Part shown: in pieces, positions 51,286 to 54,843 of the stretch
Layout: each line of letters starts with the position of its first letter
Numbering within the stretch: position 1 is the first letter of the stretch
Assembly (NCBI GenBank): GCA_036272935.1
Contig: DATAXP010000075.1
Location: forward strand, 20,511 to 84,510
DNA from: Pirellulales bacterium
Lineage (GTDB): Bacteria > Planctomycetota > Planctomycetia > Pirellulales > PNKZ01
Direction: 5' to 3'
DNA: 64,000 bases
Program-made: the position numbers and the translations under genes
Notes under the pieces: generated by a model
Told to the model about the DNA's origin: nothing
The model's database searches: none
What the model saw: the letters and a program-made list of their open reading frames with translations, nothing else

Positions 51286-51410
51286 AATGACGAATGTCGA
51301 AATTCGAATGACGAATCAAGCTCGAAATCCGAAGCTCGAACCGGCATAATCACCGTTCGTCATTCGTGCTTCGTCATTGATTCGTCATTCGAATTTCGTC
51401 ATTCGTCATT
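51286..51410. repeat. long word-built inverted repeat (AATGACGAAT / AATTCGAATG words); arms pair 33 of 34 and then degrade
   Basis: The left arm from 51286 and the reverse complement of the segment ending at 51410 align at AATGACGAATG[T/A]CGAAATTCGAATGACGAATCAA. It fills the spacer up to the GGAGGA RBS of tpiA. Confidence 0.85.
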
Positions 51411-51423
51411 CTCCGGAGGAGCC

Positions 51424-52185
51424 ATGCGGCGACCGTTTATTGCCGGCAATTGGAAGATGAACCTCAACCGCGCTGAGGCCGTGAGCCTGGCCGAGGCGAT
51501 CGCGAGCAACGCCGATAAGTTCACCGGCGTCGACGTGGCGGTCTGTCCGCCGAGCGTGTACCTCGACGCGGTCGGCAGCGTGGTGCGTGGCACGCCGGTC
51601 GGCCTCGGGGCGCAGAACATGTATCACGAGGGGCCCGGCGCCTTCACCGGCGAGATCGCGGCGTCGATGCTCGTCGATCTCGGCTGCCGCTACGTGATCC
51701 TCGGCCACAGCGAGCGCCGGCAGTTGATGGGCGAGACCGACAAGCAGGTCAACCAGAAGCTGCGAGCGGCCCTGGCTGCGGGCCTGCTGCCGATCGTGTG
51801 CGTCGGCGAGTTGCTCAGCCAGCGCGAGGCGGGACAGACGCAAGCAGTCGTTTCTGGGCAGTTCGAAGGATCGCTAGCGGGCCTCTCGGCCGATGAGATG
51901 CGCCAGGTGGTGCTAGCCTACGAGCCGGTGTGGGCCATCGGCACCGGGAAAGTCGCCACGAAGGAGCAGGCCCAGGAGGTGCACGCGGACCTTCGCAAGC
52001 TGATCGCTTCCCGCTACAATGCCGACGTTGCCCAGGCGGTTCGCATCCAGTACGGCGGCAGCGTCAAGCCGGGCAACGCGGCCGAGTTGCTCTCGCAGCC
52101 CGATGTCGACGGCGCGTTGGTGGGCGGAGCAAGTCTCAAGGCGGCCGACTTTTTGGGGATCATTGCCGGAGCGCTGGCAAAGTAA
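51424..52185 (+). CDS. tpiA: triosephosphate isomerase
   Basis: FIAGNWKMN, ILGHSERR, AYEPVWAIGTG. Confidence 0.95.
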   Translation: MRRPFIAGNWKMNLNRAEAVSLAEAIASNADKFTGVDVAVCPPSVYLDAVGSVVRGTPVGLGAQNMYHEGPGAFTGEIAASMLVDLGCRYVILGHSERRQLMGETDKQVNQKLRAALAAGLLPIVCVGELLSQREAGQTQAVVSGQFEGSLAGLSADEMRQVVLAYEPVWAIGTGKVATKEQAQEVHADLRKLIASRYNADVAQAVRIQYGGSVKPGNAAELLSQPDVDGALVGGASLKAADFLGIIAGALAK

Positions 52186-52260
52186 GGCAGAAGTCAGAAG
52201 GAGGAATGCAGAAGTGGATCGCCTGCCGACTTCTGCATTCATCCTTCTGCCTTCTGCATT
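52184..52260. repeat. long word-built inverted repeat (CAGAAG words); 32-nt arms pair at 29 of 32, 13-nt loop
   Basis: AAGGCAGAAGTCAGAAGGAGGAATGCAGAAGT (52184-52215) against ACTTCTGCATTCATCCTTCTGCCTTCTGCATT (52229-52260). The left arm overlaps the tpiA stop. Confidence 0.85.
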
Positions 52261-52275
52261 TTCTGAGGGCGACCG

Positions 52276-52728
52276 ATGAACGTGCTGCTGGGAACGTTGA
52301 TGCTGGTGACGTCGATCTTTTTGATCCTGCTGGTGCTGGTCCAGCGCGGTCGCGGCGGCGGTCTGGCCGGAGCACTCGGCGGCATGGGTGGCCAGAGCGC
52401 GTTCGGCACCAAGGCTGGCGACCTGTTCACGCGGATCACCATCGGCGTGGCTTTTGTCTGGATCGTACTCAGCATTGTTGCCGTGAAGTACTACAGCCAC
52501 AGCGGCGAGGAATTCGACAACATGGGCACCGCGACACAAACCGCTCCGATCGCGTCGTCGGCTGCACCTTCAGGCACGACAACACCAAGCACCCCCACGG
52601 CACCAACGACTGAAGCAGCGCCGACGGGCGGATCGACCAGCGCGCCCGCCGCACAGACGCCGGCGCCCCCGGCGACGAGCGCCCCGGCGACGAGCACACC
52701 GTCGGAGACGCCCGCCAAGACGCCGTAG
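52276..52728 (+). CDS. secG: preprotein translocase subunit SecG with a long Pro/Thr/Ala-rich C-terminal extension
   Basis: [35 protein letters not shown] core, then a second TM helix, then a roughly 75-aa low-complexity tail. Confidence 0.85.
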
Positions 52729-52833
52729 GCCGGCGACCTGTTTGATATGGCCGGTCGCCGTGACGACCGCGTTTTGGCGCAACGCCCCTGGCTCGCCATC
52801 GAGCCGCCGGAGACGATCACCTTGCTGCTCAGC

Positions 52834-53706
52834 ATGACCGGTTTCGGCGAAGCCCATTACCAAGGCGACGGCCTGTCGATCGGCATCGAGCTGCGCACCA
52901 TCAACAGCCGGTACTTCAAGCTGACGGTGAAATGTGGCGAGGGGTATAGCGCGCTTGAGGCCGAGATTGAGAACGTTGTGCGGCAGCAGATTCGCCGCGG
53001 CACGTTGCAACTGACCCTGCACGTTCATCGCACCAAGGCCTCGGACGATTTTCAAATCAACATCGCGGTGCTCGACAGCTACCGCCGTCAGTTGACCGTC
53101 CTGGGGCAGCAGTGGCACGTGCCGCAGCCGCCGCCGCTGGAAAGCCTGCTGTCGCTGCCGGGAGTGATCAGCGAGCACGTGCCCAGCGCCGACGATGCCG
53201 AGCGCGATTGGCCGGTGATCCATTCGACGCTCGAGGCCGCCTTGGAAAACCTGTCCAAGATGCGGACCGAAGAAGGCCGCGCGATGGCTGACGATCTGCG
53301 CAATAACTGCCGCACGGTAAGCGGCGAACTGGCGGAGATCGATCGTCGCGTGCCAATGGTCTCCGAAGCGTATCGGCAGCGCTTGGCCGATCGGCTGCAA
53401 ACGGTGCTCACCGAGTACCAGGTGACGCTCGATCCCTCGGACGTGGTGCGCGAGGTGAGCATTTTCGCCGAGCGGAGCGATATTTCCGAGGAAATCGTGC
53501 GGCTGCGGAGCCATTTGCAGCAGTTCGACTCGATCATGGAACTGCCCGAAAGCTCGGGGCGTAAGCTAGATTTTCTTACCCAGGAGATGTTTCGCGAAGC
53601 GAACACGATCGGCTCGAAGGCGAACGACGCCGAGATCTCTCGGCGCGTGATCGACATCAAGGCCGCCATCGAACGCATCCGCGAAATGATCCAGAACGTG
53701 GAGTGA
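52834..53706 (+). CDS. yicC: YicC-family protein
   Basis: MTGFGEAHYQ start (family SMTGFG), FKLTVK, and the C-terminal REANTIGSKANDAEISRRVIDIKAAIERIREMIQNVE. The track start at 52747 is less likely. Confidence 0.85.
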   Translation: MTGFGEAHYQGDGLSIGIELRTINSRYFKLTVKCGEGYSALEAEIENVVRQQIRRGTLQLTLHVHRTKASDDFQINIAVLDSYRRQLTVLGQQWHVPQPPPLESLLSLPGVISEHVPSADDAERDWPVIHSTLEAALENLSKMRTEEGRAMADDLRNNCRTVSGELAEIDRRVPMVSEAYRQRLADRLQTVLTEYQVTLDPSDVVREVSIFAERSDISEEIVRLRSHLQQFDSIMELPESSGRKLDFLTQEMFREANTIGSKANDAEISRRVIDIKAAIERIREMIQNVE

Positions 53707-53716
53707 GATCTGGGGG

Positions 53717-53805
53717 AATGCGGAATTTGGAATGGGGAGTGGGGAATGAAAGAGTCACAGTTACAATCACTGACATTCCCCATTCGCCATTCCGAATTCC
53801 CCATT
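53717..53805. repeat. long word-built inverted repeat (GGAATG / GGGGAAT words); 32-nt arms pair at 28 of 32, 25-nt loop
   Basis: AATGCGGAATTTGGAATGGGGAGTGGGGAATG (53717-53748) against CATTCCCCATTCGCCATTCCGAATTCCCCATT (53774-53805). Confidence 0.85.
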
Positions 53806-53814
53806 GACGGCGTT

Positions 53815-54420
53815 ATGGACAGCCCATCGTCGACACGCCCTGCCGCCGGGCAGGTCATTGTCATTTCCGGCCCCTCGGGAGCCGGCAAGACTACACTGCT
53901 GCGCAAGCTGCTGGCCGACTGTCCGTTGCCGCTCCAGCGCTCGGTGTCGGCCACCACGCGCTCGCCGCGCCCCGGCGAGCAGCCCGACGTCGACTACCAC
54001 TTCCTCAGCCGCGATGAGTTTCAGCGCCGCCGCCAAGCGGGCGACTTCCTCGAATGCTGCGAAGTATTCGGCCGCGGCGACTGGTACGGCACGCTGGTCA
54101 GCGAAGTTGCCCCTCGACTCGTCCGCGGAAAATGGGTAATCTTAGAGGTCGACGTACAAGGAGCGATGGCGGTCCTTGAGCAGTATCCCGACGCACTGAC
54201 GATCTTTGTCCTCCCCGGAAACATTGAGCAGTTGCAGCGCCGGCTGGCGGGGCGGGGGACCGAATCGGACGAGTCGATGGCGCGGCGGCTCGATGCGGCG
54301 GCACGCGAACTTTCGATGGCCGACCGGTACCGTCATCGCGTCGTCAACGAAAATCTCGACCAGGCGGTGGGCGATATCTGCGCGATCCTCAAGCAAGAGT
54401 TAAATAAGTCGAACGAGTAA
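53815..54420 (+). CDS. gmk: guanylate kinase
   Basis: VIVISGPSGAGKTTLL, SATTRSPRPGEQPDVDYHF. The start is set at the ATG at 53815 because the track start at 53746 lies inside the hairpin. Confidence 0.9.
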   Translation: MDSPSSTRPAAGQVIVISGPSGAGKTTLLRKLLADCPLPLQRSVSATTRSPRPGEQPDVDYHFLSRDEFQRRRQAGDFLECCEVFGRGDWYGTLVSEVAPRLVRGKWVILEVDVQGAMAVLEQYPDALTIFVLPGNIEQLQRRLAGRGTESDESMARRLDAAARELSMADRYRHRVVNENLDQAVGDICAILKQELNKSNE

Positions 54421-54496
54421 AGAGTTGTGCAAGCCGCCCATCGGCTTGCCTCTTCGCGGTTAACAACAAACCATTCGATACGGAGCATGAGACACG

Positions 54497-54760
54497 ATGA
54501 TCGACGAACTGCGTGAAGAAGCGATCGTGAACAAGGTCGGTGGACGGTTCAAGCTCTCCACGCTGATTCAAAAGCGGCTGGTGGCGCTCAACGGCGGCAG
54601 CCGGCCGCTGGTCGACATGGACACGACCGACAAACTCGAGATCGTGATCCAGGAAATCATGCAGGACAAGATCTACCTCGACACCTCGGGCCAGGTCCGC
54701 CAGGCGACCCCGTCGGAAGAAGCAGGCGGCCCGCCGGAACTCGACCTGGCGAATCTGTAG
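54497..54760 (+). CDS. rpoZ: DNA-directed RNA polymerase subunit omega
   Basis: An 87-aa protein directly downstream of gmk, which is the conserved gmk-rpoZ synteny. [20 protein letters not shown] core. Confidence 0.75.
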
Positions 54761-54772
54761 CAGGCGGGCGTC

Positions 54773-54843
54773 GGGCTACAGGCTACGGGGAGCCGACTGG
54801 AACATGTTCCATACTTTTCCCTGTAGCCCGTAGCCTGTAGCCC
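54773..54843. repeat. word-built inverted repeat (CTACAGG / CTACGGG words): perfect 17-bp stem with a nested 12-bp palindrome GGAACATGTTCC in the loop
   Basis: GGGCTACAGGCTACGGG (54773-54789) is the exact reverse complement of 54827-54843. The 3' arm abuts the coaC ATG at 54844. The inner palindrome is at 54799-54810. Confidence 0.9.

Follow-up and report, generated by a model that had tools for sequence, protein, structure and literature searches.

Inverted pairs of heptanucleotide repeats in the spacers of a conserved operon of Pirellulales

A string of same-strand genes, beta-carbonic anhydrase-tpiA-secG-yicC-gmk-rpoZ-coaC-coaB, lies within a 64-kb stretch of DNA (here called the window, and numbered from its first letter) that corresponds to positions 20,511 to 84,510 of contig DATAXP010000075.1 (GenBank assembly GCA_036272935.1) of a Pirellulales bacterium. 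Four spacers of this string are filled by long hairpins, designated H1 (carbonic anhydrase/tpiA), H2 (tpiA/secG), H3 (yicC/gmk), and H4 (rpoZ/coaC), whose arms are composed of degenerate 7-nt units. Comparison with related loci shows that such heptamer foldbacks are gained, resized, and lost quickly in the intergenic DNA of Pirellulales, where they are lineage-wide and sporadic. With somewhat better than even confidence, the hairpins can be read as foldbacks of heptanucleotide simple sequence repeats (SSRs), which arise at the level of the DNA and are tolerated inside operons, with incidental, tunable effects on the RNA. They would then be the counterpart of the cyanobacterial STRR repeats and the convergent GGGAATC repeats of Xanthomonas, rather than conserved, site-specific regulators.

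Architecture of the spacer hairpins

The inverted repeats had been located in a first-pass annotation made from the sequence alone, and recomputation reproduced their positions and pairing. H1 pairs 33/34 positions between 51286-51319 and 51377-51410, and its arms extend to 56 nt at 82%; H2 pairs 29/32 (91%; 52184-52215 with 52229-52260), H3 pairs 28/32 (88%; 53717-53748 with 53774-53805), and H4 forms a perfect 17-bp stem (17/17; 54773-54789 with 54827-54843). The stems thus span 17-34 bp, with a GC content of 0.35-0.71 and loops of 13-57 nt. When folded as RNA, H1 to H4 have free energies of -71.7, -48.7, -50.3, and -49.4 kcal/mol, corresponding to z scores of -9.4, -6.7, -5.4, and -6.4; for no hairpin did any of 200 shuffles fold as well. 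Folding with DNA parameters gives z scores of -4.8 to -8.8. In addition, 30 dinucleotide shuffles of the whole window contained no hairpin at a score of at least 17, versus 7 in the real window. These values uphold the earlier view that the hairpins exceed chance, share one architecture, and form part of something systematic. H3 and H4 are base-for-base identical in the assembly of an independent sample (L082), which differs at two positions in 2,397 nt (54393 and 55386), and thus the hairpins are not assembly artefacts. An exact look-up of RpoZ matched only the source contig and one 2.4-kb contig that is 99.9% identical, and a metagenome scan for strain-level variants found nothing closer than 74% YicC identity.

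The words within the arms had been described as 6-7 nt long; the period is in fact exactly 7, both by autocorrelation and by Tandem Repeats Finder (TRF). Autocorrelation of the arms peaks at lag 7 in all four hairpins (0.64-0.80; the lag-7 identity is 0.70 in H1, 0.76 in H3, and 0.80 in H4), whereas the three remaining strong hairpins in the window show no such peak. TRF calls period-7 arrays of 3.0-8.4 copies in 7/8 arms, the exception being the short 5' arm of H4. The called arrays are AATGACG x4.4 (51286-51316) and TTCGTCA x8.4 (51356-51411) in H1, AAGGCAG x4.4 (52184-52214) and CTTCTGC x4.0 (52230-52257) in H2, GGGGAAT x5.1 (53713-53748) and CATTCCC x4.6 (53774-53805) in H3, and GTAGCCC x3.0 in the 3' arm of H4. 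Eight of the nine period-7 arrays of at least 3 copies that TRF finds in the window fall within 51286-55411. The two arms of such foldbacks are mirror copies of one another, and not simply two arrays built on one unit: Watson-Crick pairing is 0.87 in register but falls to 0.66-0.72 after a 7-nt shift of one arm and to 0.26 after a 3-nt shift; for H1-H3 the same comparison gives 0.88-0.94 in register versus ~0.6 shifted.

Within the window, each word set is confined to its own locus, even with up to 3 mismatches allowed. To that extent the description of the four hairpins as unrelated in sequence is correct; it fails in that H1-H3 have a common CATTC/GAATG core and in that the units recur in other Pirellulales. 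The palindrome that had been noticed in the loop of H4 is likewise present, at a length of 14 nt rather than the 12 bp given for it (TGGAACATGTTCCA, 54798-54811). It is absent from all 160 related loci and, among the sequences compared, occurs in this organism only; a protein may bind there, or the palindrome may do no more than mark the foldback's centre.

The hairpins differ in how they meet the flanking genes. The stem of H2 begins 1 nt after the TAA stop codon, and its 3' flank reads ATTTTCT, followed by GAGGG, a Shine-Dalgarno-like sequence of secG. The main stem of H4 begins 12 nt after the stop codon, and its 3' base abuts the coaC ATG at 54844. Both H1 and H2 leave the Shine-Dalgarno sequence free, and H4 buries the start-codon region. 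The observation that no hairpin is followed by a U-tract stands for H1, H3, and H4; H2 alone has a U-rich tail, AUUUUCU.

A fifth, pyrimidine-rich heptamer array (CCCAACC/CCCAGCC x4.3, 55382-55412) is unpaired. It overlaps the last codons of coaC (an ...QPPAPNP tail) and the TAG stop codon, and it ends 4 nt before the TTG start codon of coaB. One of the just two differences between the samples, A/G at 55386, falls within it.

Distribution across Pirellulales

The orthologous operon was collected from 80 genomes and 80 metagenome contigs, yielding a non-redundant set of 144 contigs (1.15 Mb), whose loci are given L numbers here. This set contains 69 period-7 tandem arrays, on 40 contigs, and at most 10 arrays of each other period in the range 4-12; the first 848 kb alone contain 58 versus 0-8 per period. 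Intergenic DNA holds 56/69 of the arrays, and the non-coding share is ~20% by the same measure (first 848 kb). All 31 period-7 hairpins of the first scan are situated between open reading frames (ORFs); when the first 848 kb were scanned with symmetric scoring, 33 period-7 foldbacks emerged. Array density is ~4 times higher in the spacers of the operon (42 arrays, 0.39 per kb of non-coding DNA) than in its flanks (14 arrays, 0.10 per kb). The period-7 foldbacks are AT-richer than the genome (GC of 0.29-0.55 for most, versus 0.64), and they are also AT-richer than the GC-rich, REP-like palindromes of the same spacers.

The first-pass annotation had held that the hairpins are no repeat family because their sequences differ. 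This argument does not survive the comparison: the hairpins are mirror arrays of heptanucleotide SSRs drawn from a restricted number of unit families (TTCGTCA, GGGGAAT/GGGGATT, CCACTTT, CCTTCAT, and others) that recur at further junctions in other Pirellulales. The H1 unit, TTCGTCA/AATGACG, is also found in L059, L071, L072, L152, L153, and L012, the last with two occurrences, one of them immediately ahead of tpiA, which is also its position in the window. GGGGATT/GGGAATT units, which resemble those of H3, occur in L030 and L065, and CCACTTT, CCTTCAT/CCCTCAT, CCCACTA, CCACTGA, and AACTGAC are each present in several genomes. The foldbacks can be large or compound. The coaC/coaB spacer of L068 (8281-8685) has 172-nt arms of GATGAGG/GAGAGAT-type heptamers, ~24 units per arm, and a second foldback with 50-nt arms lies ~700 nt downstream (9390-9528); in the rpoZ/coaC spacer of L091, unit families are nested, with CCCTCAT units in the loop of an AGGGTTC/TGAACCC foldback. 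Foldbacks of equal architecture with a period of 8 (GAGTGAGT) or 10-11 (CGCGGATGAA) are present as well (L009 2066-2153, L078 8423-8507, and L002 5242-5368), so the design is not strictly limited to 7-nt units.

In 31 foldbacks with a clear compositional bias, the purine-rich arm comes first in 28 and second in 3. Because an inverted repeat reads with the same arm order on both strands, this order is an intrinsic handedness of the element, and it places a purine-rich array after the stop codon and a pyrimidine-rich array before the start codon whatever the orientation of the genes. For the same reason, the idea that "purine arm first" reflects an orientation relative to transcription was dropped: the order is silent on the direction of transcription or replication. 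Unpaired arrays obey the same rule: those nearest a stop codon are purine-rich rather than pyrimidine-rich in 15 versus 4 cases, and those nearest a start codon are pyrimidine-rich rather than purine-rich in 20 versus 10. The median distance is 4.5 nt from the stop codon to the stem (the stop codon often lying inside the stem) and 15 nt from the stem to the start codon. The median unpaired remainder is 18.5 nt, and spacers without a hairpin at these junctions have a range of lengths that includes ~18 nt. Among the 36 canonical units, the TG/CA step is enriched (P = 0.0005), and no enrichment of ATG/GTG or of Shine-Dalgarno-like 4-mers was found. A role of the purine arrays in providing a stop codon in all three frames was considered and set aside as marginal (a stop triplet in 24/36 units versus 20 expected, P = 0.06).

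Turnover at orthologous junctions

Nearly all loci among the first 80 relatives keep the order and co-orientation of the genes from tpiA to coaB, the closest genomes being metagenome-assembled genomes of soil Pirellulales with YicC identities of at most 83%. The spacers themselves are short or unstructured in most relatives. A strong stem of any kind is found at 14/120 tpiA/secG, 13/122 yicC/gmk, 12/113 rpoZ/coaC, and 19/82 coaC/coaB junctions, that is, in only 10-23%, and among these stems 2, 8, 3, and 12, respectively, are of the heptamer type. The nearest relatives, L001 and L002, are without H1, H3, and H4, and their tpiA/secG spacer has a differently worded foldback. A conserved RNA-level device, as the first-pass annotation had proposed for these spacers, is not what this pattern shows, for the unit, the copy number, and the 5' arm all vary in addition to the presence of the stem. 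That annotation had itself counted a lack of structured elements in the same spacers of related genomes among the findings that would speak against its proposal, and such a lack is largely what the comparison found.

Close relatives reveal how fast these changes occur. Upstream of tpiA, L065 carries AGTGGCT x2.5 and CAACTGA x3 and L069 carries ATAGTGG x5 and CCACTGA x10, at a nucleotide identity of 93%. In L132, the TAG of coaC joins the ATG of coaB directly, and the 89% identical L123 has a 288-nt foldback spacer at this position. In L137, L158, and L139, the pyrimidine array before coaB stays, with different units, and the purine arm shrinks or vanishes. Length and sequence also vary at the same junction between L072 and L148, and unit-sized indels (7 and 11 nt) distinguish close relatives. 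In L065 (8270-9243) and L069 (3691-4175), a purine array at the coaC stop codon and a complementary pyrimidine array at the coaB start codon are separated by one or two small membrane-protein ORFs (400-900 nt); the loop of a foldback seems to have taken gene insertions here, or the arrays flank a cassette.

Mismatches in the stems, read on the sense strand, comprise 45 G.U and 54 A.C, that is, no excess of G.U, and the folding of sense and antisense transcripts showed no difference (12 versus 18, Wilcoxon p = 0.37). Because G.U pairs are not in excess, the two strands fold equally well, and the elements are sporadic and fast-changing, together nothing points to selection specifically on the sense RNA.

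Relationship to known heptamer repeats and palindromes

Heptamers of the cyanobacterial STRR type were reportedly described by Mazel et al. in 1990. The present elements have the features of this class of heptanucleotide SSRs, to which the GGGAATC repeats of Xanthomonas also belong: 7-nt units in at least 3 copies, an excess of period 7, an intergenic bias, convergent inverted pairs, the placement of purines after stop and pyrimidines before start codons, and same-junction variation between relatives. Heptamers are over-represented among bacterial SSRs, and STRR repeats are known from Calothrix (PMC4692102; PMC4679880). Xanthomonas genomes have ~185 GGGAATC-type heptamer arrays each, 70-75 of them in convergent inverted pairs that can form stem-loops, and Nostoc carries arrays of GGGGA(T/C)T (PMC4692102, Rehm et al. 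2015). In both, the G/purine-rich strand lies downstream of ORFs on the coding strand and the C-rich strand upstream of ORFs; the Xanthomonas arrays differ in length and sequence between Xcc and Xac, and most of those examined in Xac are transcribed, with no identified role (PMC4692102).

Like these repeats, the Pirellulales foldbacks comprise degenerate 7-nt units with a conserved core, and the two share the intergenic bias, the convergent stem-loop pairs, the purine/pyrimidine placement, and their occurrence between the same genes in related species with wide variation in length and sequence. H3 comes closest of the window's hairpins to the Xanthomonas GGGAATC and Nostoc GGGGATT repeats: its GGGGAAT unit and the Xanthomonas register CGGGAAT differ by a single base, and L030 and L065 carry GGGGATT exactly. 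The differences are that the host belongs to the Planctomycetota, that many unit families coexist, even in one operon, and that the arms are demonstrated mirror copies. Furthermore, most Pirellulales units are not rich in G-tracts (AATGACG, GCAGAAG, and GGCTACA), and thus formation of a G-quadruplex (G4) cannot be the common principle. By inspection for at least four tracts of three or more G, H1, H2, and H4 lack a series of G3 tracts and H3 has just three G4-5 tracts; this excludes only the G4 subfamily and not the heptamer-SSR kind.

The only case of this kind with a demonstrated mechanism is hmw1A of Haemophilus influenzae, in which transcribed (ATCTTTC)n repeats pair with a G-rich arm in a long hairpin of the 5' untranslated region (UTR) (PMC12721329, Rapun-Araiz et al. 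2025). Cleavage of this hairpin by RNase III raises expression, and the repeat number changes only if hairpin, RNase III, and transcription are all present (PMC12721329). Structurally the Pirellulales foldbacks correspond to it, since each is a long, imperfect hairpin that closely precedes a start codon and in which a transcribed, pyrimidine-rich heptamer array pairs with a purine- or G-rich arm, transcription being inferred here from the conserved same-strand operon. However, hmw1A is a single phase-variable virulence locus with its hairpin in a 5' UTR, whereas the Pirellulales hairpins lie in intercistronic spacers of housekeeping genes; in addition, the pyrimidine-rich repeat arm of hmw1A comes first (left), and its partner is not a heptamer array. 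Direct repeats of TAACTGA, present in Beggiatoaceae, Cyanobacteria, and Bacteroidetes (PMC4679880, MacGregor 2015), resemble the present arrays in being intergenic and patchy, in ending a few nt from start codons, and in mixing related units, and arrays of AACTGAT/AACTGAC occur in L045, L037, and L065. Unlike the foldbacks, they have one dominant unit and are nearly always direct, with 1 inverted case among 170 sets.

REP sequences of E. coli stabilise mRNA and cause stalling when situated within 15 nt of a stop codon. Like the foldbacks, REP/REPIN elements are extragenic palindromes that often lie within operons and near stop codons, and GC-rich REP-like palindromes coexist with the foldbacks in these genomes (in the window, at 45454-45547, 47520-47592, and 61029-61100). 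They have, in contrast, no internal unit periodicity, a fixed family sequence with a tag tetranucleotide (GTAG or CGTC; PMC3733652, Di Nocera et al. 2013), many identical copies, and shorter, GC-rich stems. H1-H3 carry neither tag, and the GTAGCC of H4 is the repeat unit rather than a terminal tag. Other identities fared no better. A search of Rfam 15 at a permissive E-value returned only generic miRNA-precursor models, at 23-41 bits versus gathering scores of 90-168. A promoter scan found nothing at the stems; its one match, TCGAAA-17-CATAAT inside H1 (from the 5' arm to the apical loop), is at chance frequency. The target-site duplication expected of a MITE flanks neither H1-H4 nor the 288-nt insertion of L123 relative to L132. 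Integron attC sites were rejected, as RYYYAAC/GTTRRRY cores are missing and the genes on either side belong to a conserved core operon.

A phenomenon known from cyanobacteria (1990) and Xanthomonas (2015), and without an accepted function, is thus extended to a third, distant phylum. For Planctomycetes, a literature search found no description of heptamer foldbacks, the nearest remark being that G-patterns and oligopurine runs are over-represented in Isosphaera. The case also adds the true mirror-copy arms with their fixed purine-first order, and the concentration in the spacers of a conserved housekeeping operon. The value lies in the new phylum, in a weaker case for the G4 explanation offered for Xanthomonas and Nostoc, against which the many non-G4 unit families weigh, and in a comparative system, rather than in a new mechanism: one operon in ~140 genomes, with repeated gains and losses, could help to decide between repeats that adjust the stoichiometry of the operon and repeats that are only tolerated.

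Origin, effects, and alternative explanations

In the reading as tolerated foldbacks of SSRs, each hairpin consists of a purine-rich 7-nt array just past the upstream stop codon and a mirror, pyrimidine-rich array just ahead of the downstream start codon. Slippage-type events would add and remove units, and inverted duplication of the array would give rise to the mirror arm. Such inserts may persist in co-transcribed spacers by virtue of self-folding, which would leave ~18 nt of single strand between stop and start, and the purine-first order may keep purine-rich words in which AUG or GUG occurs at a distance from the start codon that follows. Because the elements would be co-transcribed with the genes, the polycistronic mRNA should contain a duplex of 17-34 bp. 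By analogy, this duplex would most likely be cut by RNase III, block 3' exonucleases, or both, and stems that begin 1-12 nt after the stop codon (H1-H4) or abut the start codon (H4) might cause some local hindrance of termination or initiation. RNA-level effects of these kinds (cleavage by RNase III, exonuclease block, effects on the adjacent stop and start codons) are likely, since the elements lie inside an operon, and together they would adjust the relative expression of neighbouring genes in a manner that depends on length and can evolve.

Several observations weigh against this explanation. The ~4-fold density of arrays in operon spacers relative to flanks and the strict rules of position and arm order could each mean positive selection or a transcription-coupled origin, and the high complementarity of the arms (86% Watson-Crick) could be kept by selection on the stem. 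Since H3 and H4 are identical in two samples, the hairpins do not show hypervariability over short times. Moreover, slippage and inverted duplication are steps that we infer, and the SSR length change in H. influenzae itself required transcription and RNase III (PMC12721329). Following the latter system, the foldbacks might owe their formation and resizing to a process that depends on transcription and RNase III, which is the proposal for hmw, and might act genome-wide as evolvable "rheostats" between cistrons, a scheme that we regard as improbable. If it were true, arm length and complementarity would set the share of polycistronic mRNA that is cut, protected, or translated on each side, and the strict 7-nt register and purine-first order would be signatures of that machinery and not of replication slippage.

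Selection for an RNA punctuation device (in processing, stability, or translational occlusion), whose sequence drifts freely while a long hairpin remains, is unlikely. The stems are very stable, fill their spacers from the stop codon to near the start codon, and are enriched in intra-operon spacers, differently worded hairpins occur at the same junctions in different lineages, and RNase III processing has a precedent (PMC12721329). However, a strong stem is missing from the corresponding junction in 77-90% of relatives, one arm can disappear between close relatives as the other stays, there is neither an excess of G.U over A.C nor a folding advantage of the sense strand, and the relation to the ribosome-binding site is not uniform, being free in H1 and H2 whereas the start region is buried in H4. 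A similar lack of uniformity led to the rejection of stem melting by a terminating ribosome (translational coupling) as the mechanism throughout, since it fits H2 (1 nt after the stop codon) and not H4 (12 nt). It is less probable still that the heptamer register is the binding register of a single-strand nucleic-acid-binding protein, such as a cold-shock-type OB-fold protein or ribosomal protein S1, on the pyrimidine array upstream of starts, with the purine arm masking or unmasking the array. The strict 7-nt period with a conserved core and variable positions in each unit, the enriched TG/CA step (P = 0.0005), the persistence of the start-proximal pyrimidine array after loss of the purine arm, and the many downstream genes without a Shine-Dalgarno sequence after the array would all suit such a protein, and CspB binds one protein per heptamer (cited in PMC4679880). 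Nevertheless, 36 canonical units, many of them unrelated, are hard to square with one specific binder; the arrays are sporadic, foldbacks of the same architecture have periods of 8, 10, and 11, and no binding protein has been identified.

Transposition of mobile palindromic elements, REP/REPIN- or MITE-like, into the spacers is very improbable. TTCGTCA-type foldbacks with common internal variants (CATTCGTGCTTCG) do recur across junctions and across genomes, with two of them in L012, the 288-nt insertion of L123 relative to L132 is clean, and classical GTAG-headed REP-like palindromes are also found in Pirellulales spacers. Yet each word set occurs only once in the window, the L123/L132 insertion lacks a target-site duplication, a conserved GTAG or CGTC head is missing from H1-H3, arms differ in length by whole units as those of SSRs would, and no transposase is linked to the hairpins, though the ORFs of the window were not screened for RAYT. 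Terminators or attenuators of transcription, U-tract-free or bidirectional, are slightly less credible again, even if long, stable stems, a purine-first symmetry that is equivalent for both directions of transcription, and the U-rich tail of H2 might be expected of them. A pattern scan found no intrinsic terminator-like site at any of H1-H4, there is no Rfam family match, and the dimensions of the loops (13-57 nt) and stems (17-34 bp) do not resemble those of intrinsic terminators; the terminator reading in the first-pass annotation is accordingly not supported. In addition, the sites lie between genes of conserved order and co-orientation (nearly all of the first 80 loci), the same genes overlap or almost abut in most of the 144 contigs, and canonical terminators with a hairpin and a U-tract do occur in relatives (L003 and L005, rpoZ/coaC).

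Genes of the operon

The naming of the gene string in the first-pass annotation is backed by the Pfam labels on the annotated source contig (a metagenome contig of 151 kb, JGI 3300036820, Ga0376690_0000263; position 1 of L081 is window position 49497), namely Pro_CA, TIM, SecG, YicC, Guanylate_kin, RNA_pol_Rpb6, Flavoprotein, and DFP. Coordinates are collected in Table 1.

Table 1. Genes, foldbacks, and repeat features of the operon (window coordinates)
Feature	Coordinates	Strand	Basis or composition
Beta-carbonic anhydrase gene, upstream neighbour of H1	50592..51278	+	PF00484
H1 foldback, carbonic anhydrase/tpiA spacer	51286..51410	+	5' arm AATGACG-type (CGAANNN units); 3' arm TTCGTCA-type, ~8 units
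tpiA	51424..52185	+	PF00121
H2 foldback, tpiA/secG spacer	52184..52260	+	AAGGCAG/GCAGAAG units paired with CTTCTGC
secG	52276..52728	+	PF03840
yicC-like gene, start uncertain	52747..53706	+	Pfam label; homology to relatives from residue 17-26
H3 foldback, yicC/gmk spacer	53713..53805	+	GGGGAAT units paired with CATTCCC
gmk, start 53815 preferred over annotated 53746	53815..54420	+	Pfam label, homologue N-termini
rpoZ	54497..54760	+	Pfam label
H4 foldback, rpoZ/coaC spacer	54766..54843	+	GGCTACA/GGCTACG units paired with GTAGCCC/GTAGCCT
Perfect 14-nt palindrome TGGAACATGTTCCA, H4 apex/loop	54798..54811	none	
coaC (flavoprotein)	54844..55407	+	Pfam label
Fifth heptamer array, unpaired, pyrimidine-rich, CCCAACC/CCCAGCC x4.3	55382..55412	+	TRF; no fold
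coaB (DFP)	55417..56049	+	Pfam label

The source annotation places the ATG of gmk at 53746, inside the loop of H3, which adds 23 residues encoded by the loop and the 3' arm; comparison with the N-termini of homologues indicates that the start is most likely the ATG at 53815. Heptamer foldbacks can thus mislead start-codon calling, and the repeat-encoded tail of CoaC is a further instance of the effect of arrays on gene annotation. The start of yicC may also differ from the one annotated, because in every relative the homology to YicC sets in only at residue 17-26. A TTG or ATG near 52822-52834 would be a candidate, and the secG/yicC spacer would then be ~90-105 nt rather than 18. A folding test of this region (52747-52835) showed no significant structure (z = -0.8). 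SecG has a C-terminal tail of ~75 residues (52500-52728) that is rich in Ala, Pro, Thr, and Ser and includes a 15-nt tandem duplication at 52667-52695.

Other palindromes in the window

GC-rich, double-hairpin palindromes of one family (TAGCCCCGG..CTCTG..CCGGGGG / CCCCCGG..CAAAG..CCGGGGCTA) are present at 45454-45547 and 47520-47592. Each lies just past a stop codon, the two flanking a 694-aa ORF, and they are REP-like in look and without 7-nt periodicity; a relative of this family is found in L047 (4076-4166). At 61029-61100 there is a 26-bp palindrome, CAACCAGCCCGAAGCGCAAGCGAGGG, whose core, CCCGAAGCG(C/T)(A/C)AGCGAG, is also found in L024 (1146), L047 (6396), and L049 (9337), and which appears to represent a dispersed family common to Pirellulales. 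A spacer between divergent genes contains a perfect 17-bp hairpin with a 30-nt loop (3999-4062; AAGCCCAGGCCAGACCG / CGGTCTGGCCTGGGCTT). Finally, an imperfect inverted repeat of 44 nt (73%), with GGACCAAAAAACTCGCC / GGCGAGTATTTTGG..., is situated at 35060-35181 in a gene-free stretch of 340 nt.

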